64,000 nt of DNA from assembly GCF_054482595.1 (NCBI RefSeq), contig NZ_CM137008.1, one strand, 5' to 3'. The first letter of the stretch is position 1. Each line of letters opens with the position of its first letter. Below the pieces are notes generated by a model. That model worked only from the letters and a program-made list of their open reading frames with translations, searched no databases and was not told where the DNA came from. Positions 26,742-32,055 of this stretch are shown here, in pieces. Made by a program: the position numbers and the translations under genes.

Positions 26742-27667
26742 GTATTCGCATAATCCCGCAAGATGAGCTGGGTTCGAGCGAGAAACGTACGGCGGATATG
26801 ATTCCGCCGTTATTGTTCCCTCGGCTCAAGAATTTATACAACCGCCGCGCCGAGCGTCTGCGCGAGCTGGCAGAAAATAATCCGCTGGGTGATTACCTGC
26901 GCTTTGCTGCGCTTATCGCCCACGCCCAGGAAGTGGTGCTGTACGACCATCCGCTGGAGATGGATCTGACCGCGCGCATTAAAGAAGCCAGCGCACAGGG
27001 CAAGCCCCCGCTGGATATTCACGTTCTGCCGCGTGATAAGCACTGGCAAAAGCTGCTGATGGCGCTGATTGCTGAGCTGAAACCTGAAATGAGCGGCCCG
27101 GCGCTGGCAGTGATTGAGAATCTGGAGAAGGCATCAACTCAGGAGCTGGAAGATATGGCCAGCGCACTGTTTGCCTCTGATTTCTCATCCGTCAGCAGCG
27201 ATAAAGCGCCGTTTATCTGGGCTGCACTGTCGCTCTACTGGGCGCAGATGGCCAATCTGATCCCCGGCAAAGCCCGCGCTGAATACGGCGAGCAACGTCA
27301 ATATTGCCCGGTTTGTGGTTCTATGCCGGTGTCCAGCATGGTGCAAATTGGCACCACTCAGGGTCTGCGTTACCTGCACTGCAACCTGTGTGAAACCGAA
27401 TGGCACGTAGTGCGCGTAAAATGCAGCAACTGCGAGCAGAGCGGCAAACTGCATTACTGGTCGCTGGATGACGAACAGGCCGCGATTAAAGCCGAAAGCT
27501 GCGATGACTGTGGCACTTACCTGAAGATTCTTTATCAGGAAAAAGAACCGAAAGTTGAAGCCGTGGCAGATGACCTCGCTTCTCTGGTACTGGACGCGCG
27601 AATGGAGCAAGAAGGCTATGCCCGCAGTTCCATCAACCCGTTCCTGTTTCCGGGTGAAGGGGAGTAA
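26738..27667 (+). CDS. fdhE: Formate dehydrogenase accessory protein
   Basis: 309 aa; paired CxxC motifs ([27 protein letters not shown]). Confidence 0.93.
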
Positions 27668-27848
27668 TCTCTGACGTTTTCCGGGTGGCGCTGGTCGCCC
27701 GGATTACAGCTCATAGGGTGTGACGACACCATCTCTCGTATTCCGCGTTACCCATTCAAGATCATGCCGCAATTGTCTGTTTGCCTCGTTCTTCCCTCCA
27801 ACACATCGATAAGGTTATGGGTATGTCACTGATGACAAGCGTATGATT

Positions 27849-27947
27849 GCCTGATGCGCTGCGCTTATCAGCCCTACCAATAAACTTCAATATATTGAAT
27901 TTGCATGACTTTGTAGGCCGGATAAGGCGTTCACGCCGCATCCGGCA
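27849..27947. repeat. REP/BIME pair
   Basis: GCCTGATGCGCTGCGCTTATCAGCCCTAC and TGTAGGCCGGATAAGGCGTTCACGCCGCATCCGGCA after fdhE. Confidence 0.8.
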
Positions 27948-27996
27948 TGAACAACGCGCACGTTGTCAGCAATCTGATTGACATCATTTTTTCCCA

Positions 27997-28215
27997 TTAC
28001 CATTCCTCGCGCAGCTTACGCTGATATTCGACACCATCTTCCTCACACCCTTGCCAGATGCCAGGAACACTGGTTCTTGCTGTTTGCGATTGATTTATCA
28101 GGTATTGATCTACCGCTTCCCTTAATAGGTCCGCACGAGGAAGATTACGCTGCACCTCGAGATCATCAAGTTGCTTAATCACCTCATTCGATAAATCGAG
28201 TAAAATTCTGCCCAT
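27997..28215 (-). CDS. yiiF: Small ribbon-helix-helix (CopG/Arc-like) protein
   Basis: 72 aa from [39 protein letters not shown]...; RHH signature; paralogous to yiiE. Confidence 0.8.
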
Positions 28216-28332
28216 ATCTATACCTACCAGAGAGTTCATAAATATCTCGCCAATATCATTTTTGAATCTATGGAGAGAAAAGTACCCTTGTCGAATCTTT
28301 AAAGAAAGCTCATTTACGAATCATTTTTTATT

Positions 28333-28352
28333 TTTGCGAGGCGTTTTCCAGA
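28333..28352 (-). promoter_or_regulatory. Copy 1 of conserved 20-bp motif TTTGCGAGG(C/T)G(T/C)TTTCCAGA, about 120-135 bp upstream of yiiF
   Basis: tttgcgaggcgttttccaga; extended similarity to copy 2 continues through ...GTTGCAGTT. Confidence 0.5.
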
Positions 28353-28458
28353 TATGATGTAACAGTTGCAGTTATTATAAGTTCAAGTAAAACAACCTTG
28401 TATTAATACCAGAATAAGGGCATCTGGTTTTTTATATTCAAGAATAAAAAAATTTTTG

Positions 28459-28677
28459 TCATTCCTTATGATCCTTACACTGATCATAAACACCTACTGT
28501 CTCACCCCTTTGCCTGCCTCTCTTTGCTTTACGCACCGGAAATTGCTGCCGCTCCAGATATTGCTCAACCGCTTCGCGTAAAATTGCAGATCGTGAAACC
28601 TTACGCCAGCCCCGAAGCTTGTTCAGCCGTTTAATTGCCTCTTCTGATAAATGAAGAAAAACCGTATTCATCGCCAT
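28459..28677 (-). CDS. yiiE: Small ribbon-helix-helix (CopG-like) protein
   Basis: 72 aa from MAMNTVFLHLSEEAIKRLNKLRGWRKVSRSAILREAVEQYL...; GGTGG RBS; shares L.LS.E.IK.L...R..LREAV.QYL with yiiF. Confidence 0.8.
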   Translation of the reverse strand: MAMNTVFLHLSEEAIKRLNKLRGWRKVSRSAILREAVEQYLERQQFPVRKAKRGRQRGETVGVYDQCKDHKE

Positions 28678-28772
28678 TACCACCACCTTACATATATTAC
28701 TCATTAATGTATGTGCGAAAATTACGCCGGAAAATCATTTAAAAAAAGCGGATTTTTGCATGTTGTTTTGTT

Positions 28773-28792
28773 TTTGCGAGGTGTTTTCCAGA
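28773..28792 (-). promoter_or_regulatory. Copy 2 of conserved 20-bp motif, about 100-115 bp upstream of yiiE
   Basis: tttgcgaggtgttttccaga followed by ...GTGTTGCAGTTG as in copy 1. Confidence 0.5.
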
Positions 28793-29084
28793 AATAATAA
28801 GAGTGTTGCAGTTGTTTCATTTATTACTCAAAAATGGTTTAGTTATCGCCCAGGATGAGTTATGGATGCTATGAATATATTATATTCAGAGATATTTATT
28901 TGCATAATCTGAATGGTGTAGCCGAAAAACGTCAGCATCCTAACAGCACCAGGATTTAAGGTGAAATTAATCATCCATCACAGACCGGTCAGTACTGCCA
29001 CCAACCGGTCTTTACTTGTTCATCGTTATAATTTTGTTGGTAACAGTTCGGGAAACAAGGAATTCCTTCCGGAACCCCCCGGTA

Positions 29085-29177
29085 TCATCCGATAGCATTG
29101 ACGTCAATCATCAGCGCGACGATGAGTTTTTTTAATCGCATCATAGGGTGGCGACGTTCAGCACGATTACGGGTCAT
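29085..29177 (-). CDS. Candidate 30-codon small ORF downstream of the antitoxin gene
   Basis: AGGAG 7 nt upstream of ATG; product MTRNRAERRHPMMRLKKLIVALMIDVNAIG (basic N-terminus, hydrophobic C-terminus); below the size cutoff of the ORF track; no homolog recognised. Confidence 0.3.
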   Translation of the reverse strand: MTRNRAERRHPMMRLKKLIVALMIDVNAIG

Positions 29178-29262
29178 AGCAAAACTCCTGGGCAGGCGAC
29201 CACTATGCCGCTTTCACAGGAGTTCTGAATGCTAGTGCTTTCTGTATGGCATAACCATGCCT

Positions 29263-29553
29263 CTAACGGTTAAGTGCTTGCAGCACATGTTGCGGATCAT
29301 TGGCAATCGCTCGCAGCAAAGCCTTTGCAGGCCCGGTCGGTGAACGTCGCCCCTGCTCCCAGTTACGCAACGTGTCTACGCTTACAGAAATAAGATCGGC
29401 AAATTTAGATTGTGACAACCCTGAAGCGCGGCGTATTTCTTTGATTTTCATAGCATCAACTTCAAAAGTCCGCGAAGGCTGTCGCGTTCCTTCAATAATT
29501 TCATTCATCTGGGCCATGCTGTGAGTCAACCGCTCAAAAAGTGCCTTATCCAT
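29263..29553 (-). CDS. HTH-XRE family DNA-binding protein, putative HigA-like antitoxin
   Basis: 96 aa; C-terminal HTH (IKEIRRASGLSQSKFADLISVSVDTLRNWEQGRR); GAGGTGG RBS inside the upstream toxin gene; ATG directly abuts the toxin stop (TGG-TAA-ATG). Confidence 0.7.
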   Translation of the reverse strand: MDKALFERLTHSMAQMNEIIEGTRQPSRTFEVDAMKIKEIRRASGLSQSKFADLISVSVDTLRNWEQGRRSPTGPAKALLRAIANDPQHVLQALNR

Positions 29554-29865
29554 TTACCACCTCGTATTTAACAACCGGAGCATTGCTTTTTCCTGGGGAG
29601 ACAGATCATCTTTAATACCCTTACGATAAATAAGCAGTAATCTGATCTCATAATGTTTAACCTGATGAAAGTAAATAACCCTGACACCAGCACGTTTCCC
29701 CTTTCCTCCTGAAACCCATCGAACCTTTCTTAACCCACCAGTTTCAGGTATTACCTCACCATAGTCAGGATTCAAGGCCAGGAAAAACTGAAAACGACTG
29801 AATTCATCGTCGGTCAGCAGTTTTTGAACATCTTCAGTAAAAATTTCCGTTTCGATGAAGAGCAT
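29554..29865 (-). CDS. RelE/ParE-superfamily toxin, HigB-like (toxin encoded upstream of its antitoxin)
   Basis: 103 aa; pattern ...GGLRKVRW...GKGKRAGVRVIYF.....IRLLLIYRKGIKDDLSPQE... typical of HigB-type addiction-module killer proteins; gene order toxin then HTH antitoxin with zero spacing. Confidence 0.65.
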   Translation of the reverse strand: MLFIETEIFTEDVQKLLTDDEFSRFQFFLALNPDYGEVIPETGGLRKVRWVSGGKGKRAGVRVIYFHQVKHYEIRLLLIYRKGIKDDLSPQEKAMLRLLNTRW

Positions 29866-29902
29866 AATTATACGCCATTGGCTTAGAGTAACAATCCTTT
29901 TT

Positions 29903-29919
29903 GTACGTCATTGACGTAC
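29903..29919. promoter_or_regulatory. Perfect 17-bp palindrome GTACGTCA-t-TGACGTAC upstream of the toxin gene: candidate operator
   Basis: Located about 40-55 bp upstream of the toxin ATG, adjacent to TTGTTA-N16-TATAAT-like hexamers on the minus strand. Confidence 0.4.
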
Positions 29920-29986
29920 CCTTGAAACCACTAGCTTACTGATAGTGCTCCAGCAAAACCACGTCTCTGCCGGGTTTGTCTTTAGA

Positions 29987-30006
29987 TTTGCGAGGCGCTT
30001 TCCAGA
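29987..30006 (-). promoter_or_regulatory. Copy 3 of conserved 20-bp motif, about 120-140 bp upstream of the toxin-antitoxin operon
   Basis: tttgcgaggcgctttccaga; 18-19/20 identity to copies 1 and 2. Confidence 0.5.
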
Positions 30007-30093
30007 TTTTTCACGCCCGTGAATTTCCCTGTATCCATCCAGCAAAAACGGGTGTATAAGACTGTGCATTCATACAGCAAAATAAGTTCTACT

Positions 30094-31002
30094 ATGGCAC
30101 TGGAAAAAGGAATTGCAGAGTTAGTCGAAAAGTTTATCGCTGCGGGTCGCCCCTCATCGCGTCAACAAAGTATTGCGCAGCGCAGGGAGGGCTATATCGC
30201 CAGCGCTGTCCTTGCGGGTGAGACAGAAACGCGGGTAGATATTCAGACTATCGAACTTGAAGGGATGACCTTACGAATAGTGTCGCCGCTGAATGCCCCG
30301 ACATTACTCCCGACGATAATTTATTACTACGGTGGCTGTTTTGTTAGCGGCGGGTTCGCAACTCACGACAACCAGCTGCGCCAGTTAGCCTATTACGGGC
30401 AATGTCGGGTTATTGCCGTCCAGTATCGGCTGGCACCGGAACATACTTTCCCCGCCGCCCATGATGATGCGCAACGAGGTGCAGAAATAGTCTGGCAACA
30501 CGCCGAACGACTCGGCGTTGATAAACAACGTATAACTCTTGCCGGTGACAGTGCGGGCGGACATCTGGCGCTGGTAACTGCTTTGCGATTAAAGCGTGCT
30601 GGCGAGTGGCAACCGGCACAACTCATCTTAATTTATCCTATGCTTGATGCGACTGCGCATTTCGAAAGCTACATACGCAATGGTCACGATTACATCATCA
30701 CACGCGACACTTTACTGAGCGGCTTTGAGATGTATCTGCCAGGCATTGAACGCAGGCATCCTGAAGCCAGCCCTCTTTGGCGCGATGATTTCAATGGCTT
30801 GCCACCTGTACATATCATTACCGCTGAATACGACCCACTTTGCGATGAAGGTGAAGCGTTGTATCACCGCATGACAGGGCAAGGAGTGCAATGCACCTGC
30901 CAACGCTACCTTGGCGTTATCCACGGATTTTTTCAGTTAGGTGGTATCAGCGAGGCCGCGCGATCGGCACTACGGGATGTTGCCTGGAGAGCGGGAAGGT
31001 AA
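30094..31002 (+). CDS. Alpha/beta-hydrolase esterase/lipase, hormone-sensitive-lipase family
   Basis: Oxyanion-hole motif YYYGGCFVSGG, nucleophile elbow GDSAGG, downstream Asp/His (VIHGFF); start uncertain (ATG 30094 chosen; ORF opens at GTG 30019). Confidence 0.75.
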   Translation: MALEKGIAELVEKFIAAGRPSSRQQSIAQRREGYIASAVLAGETETRVDIQTIELEGMTLRIVSPLNAPTLLPTIIYYYGGCFVSGGFATHDNQLRQLAYYGQCRVIAVQYRLAPEHTFPAAHDDAQRGAEIVWQHAERLGVDKQRITLAGDSAGGHLALVTALRLKRAGEWQPAQLILIYPMLDATAHFESYIRNGHDYIITRDTLLSGFEMYLPGIERRHPEASPLWRDDFNGLPPVHIITAEYDPLCDEGEALYHRMTGQGVQCTCQRYLGVIHGFFQLGGISEAARSALRDVAWRAGR

Positions 31003-31019
31003 CTTCGGACCTGGGCCCT

Positions 31020-31048
31020 GAAAAGGTTTTCAGATTGAAAACCTTTTC
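31020..31048. terminator. Hairpin between convergent esterase and yiiD genes
   Basis: Perfect 13-bp stem GAAAAGGTTTTCA-gat-TGAAAACCTTTTC; symmetric, could terminate both converging transcripts. Confidence 0.6.
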
Positions 31049-31065
31049 AGTCAAGTAAAACGCCC

Positions 31066-32055
31066 CTACTCTTCTTCGTTCCCGCCCTCTTCATACGGGC
31101 CAAATGGCTTCGCGGGCAGAACGATATACGTGCCTTCAAACACTGCACCCGGCGTCTCGTCGCCAAAGATTTCAACTTGCATCTGCACCCGTGCTTTTCG
31201 TCCGCGCGCCAGACGGTCGAGATCGCCGCTTAAGGCACCAAGGTCGGCTACCGCATGAGGTTTACCGCTAATCGGCTTGCTGTAGCGGATATGCGCATCC
31301 GCCAGAATAATCGTTCCGCCGAGATGGCGTTCGCGCAGCATCAGCCAGATAAGCCCCCAACCGGTGAGCGTCGCCAGCGAGAATAAACTCCCGGCAAACA
31401 GCGTATGGTGCGGATTCTGATTGCCGGTTTCCGGCATGGTGGTGATAAATTTTTGCCCGGTATATTGTTGAATACGCACGCCCATTTTTTCACTAAGCGG
31501 GATATGTTCGTACCACGCCTGTTGCAGCTGCGCGCACCAGTCGCCGCGATGCAAAATATCATCCAGAGTGGCGACGGGCTTAATCATCAAAAAATGGCGA
31601 ATCGGCGTGGTGGTTGGCGTGGTGATTTCTCCCTGATTAACAAACCCCAGCTTGGCGAAAAACTCCACCGCGTCTTCACGGGCGCTACAGGTCACGCGCT
31701 TAACGCCTTCCTGACGCGCCACCGACTCCAGGGTCATCGCCATCAGCGTTCCTAACCCTTTGTCCTGCACGTCCGGGTGAACGGCCATAAAGCGAATGGA
31801 CGCTTCATTGTCGGCATTAATATACAGTCGGCCTACCGCCACCAGATTACCCTGCTCGTCGACGACCATCTGGTGATGCGCCATCGCATCCCACGCGTCG
31901 CGTTCCGAACCTTTTGGTTGATGCAGGGGCTTACGCAACATTTCCCAGCGAAACTGATAGTAACGCTCTAATTCTTCTTCTGTTTGTGGAACCCGAAGGT
32001 GATACATAGCGATACTCTCTCTTGTTTCCCGTGACAACCCTGGAAGCTGGCTCAT
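31066..32055 (-). CDS. yiiD: GNAT acetyltransferase fused to hotdog-fold thioesterase domain
   Basis: 329 aa, [44 protein letters not shown]...; I recall this gene having been renamed fabY, but that is from memory. Confidence 0.85.

Follow-up and report, generated by a model that had tools for sequence, protein, structure and literature searches.

The window analyzed here is a 64,000-nt stretch of an Escherichia coli genome (NCBI RefSeq assembly GCF_054482595.1, contig NZ_CM137008.1), and the subject of this report is a toxin–antitoxin operon within it together with the palindromic DNA that precedes the toxin gene. The genes of the region run in the order fdhE, yiiF, yiiE, antitoxin, toxin, an alpha/beta-hydrolase (30094–31002, plus strand; hereafter the esterase), fabY, and dtd. 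The toxin gene (29554–29865, minus strand) encodes a 103 amino acid (aa) homolog of the RelE-fold toxin HigB-2 and is the counterpart of Salmonella SehC (STM4032.2N). The antitoxin gene (29263–29553, minus strand) follows directly and encodes a 96 aa HigA-2 homolog with a C-terminal helix-turn-helix (HTH)-XRE domain, the counterpart of Salmonella SehD. The same toxin-first order is found in all loci fetched for comparison (see below). The toxin lacks a Shine-Dalgarno sequence; for the antitoxin, a candidate can be read within the 3′ end of the toxin gene (GAGGTGG, 29557–29563, minus strand).

Both proteins resemble a pair characterized in Vibrio cholerae. A phmmer comparison with PDB entries aligns toxin residues 2–99 with V. 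cholerae HigB-2 structures (E = 1.5e-19), and the antitoxin matches PDB HigA-2 over residues 31–89 (E = 1.8e-8) and HTH_3 with E = 7.5e-10. Antitoxin residues 1–30, where the N-terminal neutralizing region would lie, did not align with HigA-2. The recognition helix, TL(R/K)NWEQGRR, is conserved in 76 of 77 homologs. The Prokaryotic Genome Annotation Pipeline (PGAP) places the antitoxin in the ‘NadS family’ (gene nadS), and its match to the NCBIfam NadS model (NF041265) is borderline, 60.7 bits against a cut-off of 60. A literature search on the meaning of the name NadS found no explaining paper, and the K-12 ‘nadS’ of PMC12350097 sits at another locus. The toxin homologs are overwhelmingly 103 aa long and share a conserved N-terminus, MLFIETEIF, so the toxin start codon is secure. 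Upstream in-frame starts were considered and rejected in view of that common length and of a TGA at 29910–29908, after which no ATG, GTG, or TTG occurs in frame. By homology and gene organization, we identify the pair as an E. coli HigB2/HigA2-type type II toxin–antitoxin operon. The module with its present promoter is found in ∼2,636 of 5,426 complete E. coli genomes (∼49%). It is missing from K-12 (BW25113), where 474 bp of A/T-rich DNA with an annotated pseudogene fragment replaces 29056–31065, the segment that holds the module and the esterase; transcription start site (TSS) data from K-12 are therefore unusable for mapping the start of this operon.

A sequence-only reading of this DNA had proposed that a perfect 17-bp palindrome ahead of the toxin gene is the operator of a dimeric HTH antitoxin. 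The letters bear out the palindrome. On the plus strand, positions 29903–29919 read GTACGTCATTGACGTAC, two perfectly matched 8-nt arms around a single central base (GTACGTCA-T-TGACGTAC). We term this site O1 and assign it to neither strand. Palindromes of the perfect 8-1-8 type are generally enriched in the window, with six present against 1.13 expected from Markov-1 sequences, as an accidental origin of O1 would have it. The chance of one such palindrome landing in the 228-bp intergenic region is ∼0.004.

The identity of O1 emerges from a second site, which the sequence-only reading overlooked, and from comparison with other genera. The second site, O2 (29870–29886, likewise unstranded), reads CTAAGCCAATGGCGTAT on the minus strand and forms an imperfect palindrome (CTAAGCCA-A-TGGCGTAT) in which six of eight arm pairs match. 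Its center lies 33 bp from that of O1, and 4 nt separate its end from the toxin ATG. A weight matrix was derived from 61 unique sites that precede homologous toxin genes in other genera, with E. coli excluded. When the 64-kb window is scanned with this matrix, O1 scores 27.1 bits and O2 scores 22.2 bits, and the third-ranked match scores 6.4 bits. The matrix is slightly circular, having been seeded with the window's own consensus, but its sites were drawn from independent genomes and the negative control, described next, is clean.

Eighty loci with toxin homologs were fetched from one-genome-per-species contigs, and the 77 usable ones span many gammaproteobacterial genera. All 77 have the 17-bp motif RTACGYCAWTGRCGTAY ahead of the toxin gene, and every locus contains at least one site of at least 12 bits. 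In total, 123 sites at or above this score fall in the 11,454 nt that make up the 150 nt upstream of each of the 77 toxins, versus none in the remaining 230,854 nt. Two copies are present in 46 loci and one in 31. The proximal site ends 3–6 nt ahead of the start codon in 46 of the 77, and 20 enterobacterial loci share the layout O1, 16–17 nt, O2, 4–5 nt, ATG. The distance between the two centers differs by clade, at 17, 33–34, or 45–47 bp. Among E. coli alleles, changes within O1 and O2 are confined to positions at which the matrix is degenerate, and O2 is invariant apart from its degenerate center base; these alleles are all at least 90% identical, a diversity too low for footprinting. An identical promoter region is found in EPEC E2348/69. 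The most divergent E. coli promoter alleles are those of AVS0971, with a changed O2 center base, and HS-02, with an altered TTGTTA region (see below). In both strains the toxin gene is annotated as frameshifted, a hint that the module is decaying in some lineages.

These comparisons also bear on other explanations of the palindrome, namely that it is a chance feature, the site of an unrelated factor such as LexA or the ribbon-helix-helix proteins YiiE and YiiF, or a DNA or RNA hairpin. A LexA box does lie 150 bp away, as a host-factor explanation might predict, but the palindrome does not fit CTGT-N8-ACAG. Moreover, the motif travels with the toxin–antitoxin module into Legionella, Pseudomonas, Xenorhabdus, and metagenome-assembled genomes, while the rest of those loci is free of it. 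Because the motif accompanies the module into unrelated contexts, a factor of the host locus is excluded. A 1-nt loop is unable to form a hairpin, and Rfam gives no match at the palindrome; a scan of 27600–31200 returned no RNA families beyond sub-threshold matches resembling repetitive extragenic palindromes (REP). We consider this set of explanations highly improbable, with chance, another factor, and a hairpin each essentially excluded. Separately, a plus-strand promoter with the TTGACG inside the palindrome as its −35 was considered and rejected: it has no acceptable −10 at 16–18 nt, and the promoter scan returned no match on the plus strand.

A structurally characterized relative is the V. 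cholerae HigA2 operator, TGTACGC-N5-GCGTACA, which has been footprinted and co-crystallized and which begins after the −35 and runs over the −10 (Hadzi et al. 2024, PMC11006873). The E. coli palindrome, TGTACG-TCATTGA-CGTAC (TGTACG-N7-CGTAC), repeats this half-site in an identical 17-bp frame, although at half-site position 6 E. coli has T or C followed by CA instead of C. HigA2 contacts the bases through R68, E71, N72, and R77 (PMC11006873). These residues align with D60, R63, N64, and R69 of the E. coli antitoxin; N72 and R77 are thus kept as N64 and R69, which are conserved in 76 of 77 homologs. The two operons also share the toxin-first order, a RelE-fold toxin without a Shine-Dalgarno sequence, an HTH-XRE antitoxin, and a −10 built from the last bases of the operator (TACACT in V. 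cholerae, TATAAT in E. coli). They differ in that V. cholerae has one operator, while E. coli has two, 33 bp apart. Given the shared half-site and spacing, the conservation across genera, and the retention of N64 and R69, the proposal of the sequence-only reading is well supported: as judged from these comparisons, O1 is an evolutionarily conserved antitoxin (repressor) site, one of two at a HigB2/HigA2-type promoter. It is very likely that O1 and O2 together are antitoxin operators that autorepress the operon.

By synteny and homology, the E. coli module is the ortholog of Salmonella sehCD. In Salmonella Typhimurium, sehCD (STM4032.2N–STM4033; ‘higB-2’, STM14_4847) occupies the same position beside fdhE and is divergent from the esterase STM4032/nlhH. 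One Salmonella enterica toxin homolog (P0110) is 68% identical to the E. coli toxin. The Salmonella locus has the same O1, 17 nt, O2, ATG layout and the same LexA box ahead of the esterase. It differs in keeping an intact TTGACG-16-TACTAT promoter, in having no TATAAT beside the ATG, and in a leader that ends in GGGAA. A paper on sehCD, since retracted, reported two palindromes over the putative −35 and −10, ∼10-fold derepression without SehD, and binding in electrophoretic mobility shift assays, and it also described SehC as non-toxic (PMC3868539). Owing to the retraction, we treat that paper as weak support and a pointer only.

A different toxin-first system offers a looser parallel. The HigB-HigA pair of Rts1/Proteus vulgaris is reportedly repressed through two inverted repeats over its promoter. 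The toxin gene again comes first in this hig operon, and the repressor is again an HTH antitoxin (PMC12266136). Its HigB belongs to a different Pfam family (PF05015), and its operator sequences are probably unrelated to those of E. coli.

The second subject of the sequence-only reading was a pair of promoter-like hexamers, which we term P_down. Downstream of the palindrome, the minus strand reads AAAAAGGA, TTGTTA (29894–29889), a 16-nt spacer, TATAAT (29872–29867), a single T (29866), and the toxin ATG (29865–29863), so the hexamers and the 1-nt gap are as that reading described them. P_down (−35-like TTGTTA, 29889–29894, and −10-like TATAAT, 29867–29872, both on the minus strand) scores 10 of 12 against consensus and is the sole promoter-like match that the scan found in 28900–30400; its predicted start, 29858–29862, falls inside the toxin open reading frame (ORF). 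On both strands of the window, four promoter-like sites score at least 10 of 12, compared with 9.3 ± 3.3 in random sequence. The a priori chance of such hexamers beside a given start codon is ∼0.003, yet both overlap independently constrained elements. The first three bases of TATAAT are the end of an O2 half-site (CGTAT), and AAT comes from the A/T-rich leader; relatives have TATATT, TATGAT, TACATT, or TATTAT at this position. TTGTTA can likewise be read as T-TG-T-TA, that is, as the TGn extension and first two bases of an ancestral extended −10, and it varies among E. coli alleles (TTGTTG, TTTATT). Positions 5–10 downstream of TATAAT are all pyrimidines, with 29862–29858 reading CTCTT. The sequence-only reading allowed that the hexamers might be coincidental; they are real, but their sequence overlaps suggest that they are largely a by-product of the O2 half-site, the A/T-rich leader, and the ancestral extended −10.

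The ancestral promoter, P_up, is suggested by the relatives. Toward the toxin, the upstream operator of 64 of the 79 loci reads CATTGAC and so supplies TTGAC as a −35, and a TAnnnT (TAnTAT) −10 lies 16–17 nt downstream. Five Enterobacter and Leclercia loci have the TGn extension at the position of TTGTTA (TGcTACTAT or TGtTATTAT; TGnTAnnnT). Center bases were tabulated for 48 two-site loci, comprising the 46 above, the window, and one Salmonella locus: the distal center is T in 41 and the proximal center is A in 36. The proximal A fits a CA start site at the O2 center. Distant loci with adjacent operators have TTGACG, 17 nt, TATTAT, 8 nt, and ATG, and there too a half-site also forms the −10. 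In E. coli, the predicted remnant of P_up is an extended −10, TGtTACTCT (29885–29893, minus strand), partnered by ATGACG (29906–29911), which lies 15 nt upstream inside O1. ATGACG is the proximal half of O1 as read toward the toxin gene, and this degraded −35 lost its first T because the O1 center base flipped, a change that leaves the palindrome perfect.

On balance, we slightly favor P_up as the source of the mRNA that encodes the toxin. The transcript would probably start at A29879 or A29878 and would carry a 13–14-nt leader without a Shine-Dalgarno sequence, with the toxin AUG kept. O2 overlaps the spacer and −10 of TTGTTA/TATAAT as well as positions −10 to +9 of the predicted P_up, while O1 overlaps only the degraded −35. 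The sequence-only reading missed O2, the site that covers the spacer and −10 of its own hexamers. A start at A29878 would also place an AUG at the very 5′ end of the transcript (29878–29876), opening an out-of-frame 14-codon ORF (29878–29834, minus strand; MAYNYALHRNGNFY) that overlaps the toxin AUG. From there, the toxin ATG follows at an offset of 13 nt in E. coli versus 14 nt in Enterobacter, so the MAYNYALHRNGNFY peptide is not conserved; the 5′-terminal AUG could nonetheless compete with toxin initiation. The supplements of three Salmonella transcriptome papers were searched for a sehC start, and only a TSS for the esterase was found.

The short distance between TATAAT and the ATG had been taken to mean that the toxin transcript is either leaderless or starts elsewhere. 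A leaderless mRNA with the A of the ATG as +1 would suit a toxin without a Shine-Dalgarno sequence, and it has parallels in the family. The V. cholerae higBA2 promoter (positions 566–603 of our locus L090) runs TTGCCA, tc, TGTACGCTTGGTGCGTACA, cttcctat, ATG, a geometry of TTGCCA, 17 nt, TACACT, 6 nt, ATG. A literature search for a statement that higB2 mRNA is leaderless found none. From its promoter geometry we predict that it is, and several distant homologs, with gaps of 4–8 nt, likewise predict leaderless or near-leaderless toxin mRNAs. However, the 6-nt gap of V. cholerae corresponds to a single nucleotide in E. coli, where the A of the ATG already occupies the second position past the −10. 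The sigma-70 holoenzyme initiates 6–10 nt after the −10. The 1-nt gap thus excludes a leaderless toxin mRNA from TATAAT on geometrical grounds, and no other −10 lies at a fitting distance, since the key A at position 2 is absent from both TGGCGT and GGCGTA. We judge a leaderless transcript in E. coli extremely unlikely and favor a start elsewhere, from P_up at ∼29878–29879.

P_down may instead be the main active promoter. Repressed through O2 and starting at ∼29858–29862, it would yield an mRNA that has lost the toxin AUG and from which only the antitoxin is translated, via GAGGTGG, with toxin made from rare upstream starts; it would thereby bias the antitoxin:toxin ratio. P_down is the best match to consensus in the region and has a perfect −10, and sites with such scores are rare, at four on both strands of the window. 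Relative to it, O2 begins after the −35 and covers the −10, as does the V. cholerae operator. The main argument comes from three Pseudocitrobacter loci with TTGTCA or TTGTCT, 16 nt, TATTAT, 1 nt, and ATG, in which the ancestral −35 is lost. A downstream alternative is present in every enterobacterial locus whose O1 has lost TTGAC. There is also a precedent in the toxin-first hicAB operon of E. coli, where, according to the summary of Turnbull & Gerdes (2017) in PMC5535158, a second promoter near the toxin start yields a shorter mRNA, which supports antitoxin synthesis but poor or no translation of the toxin. The hicAB protein families are unrelated to those studied here, the hicAB start sites have been mapped whereas ours are predicted, and the second hicAB promoter removes the ribosome-binding site, whereas a downstream start here would remove the AUG itself. 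Against a dominant P_down, both hexamers are accounted for by other constraints (the O2 half-site, and the ancestral extended −10 with its TGn-TA), its −35 varies among E. coli alleles, and its all-pyrimidine start window is poor for initiation. The toxin ORF is also intact, at 103 aa, in most of the ∼2,600 genomes, so the toxin is presumably expressed. We therefore regard an antitoxin-only P_down as a tentative alternative, less probable than transcription from P_up.

A historical version of this alternative can be formulated for E. coli and Pseudocitrobacter. The ancestral promoter would have been displaced 18 bp downstream by the flip of the O1 center base, one-base deletions, and drift of the leader to TATAAT, leaving a dominant, O2-repressed antitoxin-only mRNA while the toxin is expressed from the weak, overlapping extended −10. 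We think such a displacement conceivable but doubtful.

Returning to the two-operator reading, we propose the following mechanism. A dimer of the HTH-XRE antitoxin (96 aa) would occupy each 17-bp site and place a single recognition helix on each GTACG half-site, and its binding would turn off transcription of the operon. O2 would cover the core promoter and start region, and O1, 33 bp upstream, would sit where nearly all relatives have their −35. Toxin mRNA would come from the weakened ancestral promoter (ATGACG, 15-nt spacer, TGtTACTCT), with a start at ∼29878–29879. TTGTTA/TATAAT, if used by RNA polymerase, would give a transcript that begins inside the toxin ORF and encodes the antitoxin only. 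We hold this two-operator, HigB2/HigA2-type explanation as a whole to be probable. By its half-sites and spacing, the operator pair is a further case of a known kind of operator, now tied to the structurally characterized HigA2 operator.

Several points weigh against this explanation or parts of it. Direct observation covers the sequences, the protein homology, the promoter geometry, and how conserved and specific the motif is across species; from these we infer binding by the E. coli antitoxin, repression, and both TSSs. The toxin matches the Pfam RelE family (PF06296) below its gathering score (17.6 versus 27). In the antitoxin, R68 and E71 of HigA2 are replaced by D60 and R63, so specificity should be related, not identical. 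The distance between O1 and O2 follows no constant helical phasing and thus does not imply cooperativity between the sites. The sole paper on the direct ortholog is the retracted one. Finally, P_up in E. coli is weakened three times over, by a T>A change in the −35, a spacer shortened from 16 to 15 nt, and a −10 changed from TACTAT to TACTCT, and it scores 7 of 12 plus TGn against 10 of 12 for P_down. By consensus P_down should thus dominate, and O1 would then sit upstream of its −35, which is unusual for a repressor site.

The divergent esterase gene has upstream elements of its own. A canonical LexA box, CTGTGCATTCATACAG (30062–30077, plus strand), precedes the ATG of the esterase gene (30094) by 17 nt, and no other CTGT-N8-ACAG match occurs in the window. 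In Salmonella, nalidixic acid induces both higB-2 and the esterase gene nlhH, which have an SOS box in common; nlhH/STM4032 belongs to the SOS-induced genes, and its TSS maps just upstream of the equivalent LexA box. Three plus-strand copies of TCCAGCAAAA/TACAGCAAAA occur at 29949–29958, 30038–30047, and 30073–30082. The first lies 30 nt upstream of O1, the last two are contained in an 18-nt repeat (TGTATCCATCCAGCAAAA/TGCATTCATACAGCAAAA), and the third shares bases with the right arm of the LexA box. These are probably the ‘motif copies’ of the sequence-only reading, for which a toxin start far upstream, near copy 3, together with an antitoxin that does not bind the palindrome, would have counted against its proposal. 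Such a start is not supported, as the repeat there is part of the divergent esterase promoter with its LexA box.

Other features flank the operon. Imperfect repeats bracket the cassette (29224–29242 versus 29924–29949), with an inverted alignment of 19 nt at 79% identity and a direct one of 15 nt at 80% (CTGAATGCTAGTGCT/CTTACTGATAGTGCT); either insertion scars or fortuitous similarity could account for them. In the variable segment, a gap between yiiE and the antitoxin gene contains a 30-codon ORF with a short hydrophobic tail (MTRNRAERRHPMMRLKKLIVALMIDVNAIG; 29085–29177, minus strand), with no Rfam match nearby. A second perfect 8-1-8 palindrome, TGAATATATTATATTCA (28872–28888), lies upstream of yiiE, which encodes a CopG/ribbon-helix-helix protein. 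It is present in K-12 too and may be an operator for YiiE or YiiF. Between fdhE and yiiF, at 27870–27952, are sub-threshold Rfam matches to naRNA4 (CssrE) and ES036 (CssrF).

Taken together, these results provide a sequence-level regulatory map, covering a pair of operators, two candidate promoters that overlap, and a toxin that lacks a ribosome-binding site, for an operon carried by about half of complete E. coli genomes. The family consensus RTACGYCAWTGRCGTAY could serve for annotating HigBA2-type modules. Across the family, one operator design appears to have been rearranged around the promoter by lineage, with sites either adjacent at 17 bp or split by 33–34 or 45–47 bp. The start-site question bears on how toxin-first modules keep their antitoxin in excess. 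If the promoter was indeed displaced in E. coli and Pseudocitrobacter, the locus would be a device of two overlapping promoters that sets the antitoxin:toxin ratio by the choice of start site, and possibly a step toward domesticating the antitoxin as a stand-alone regulator.

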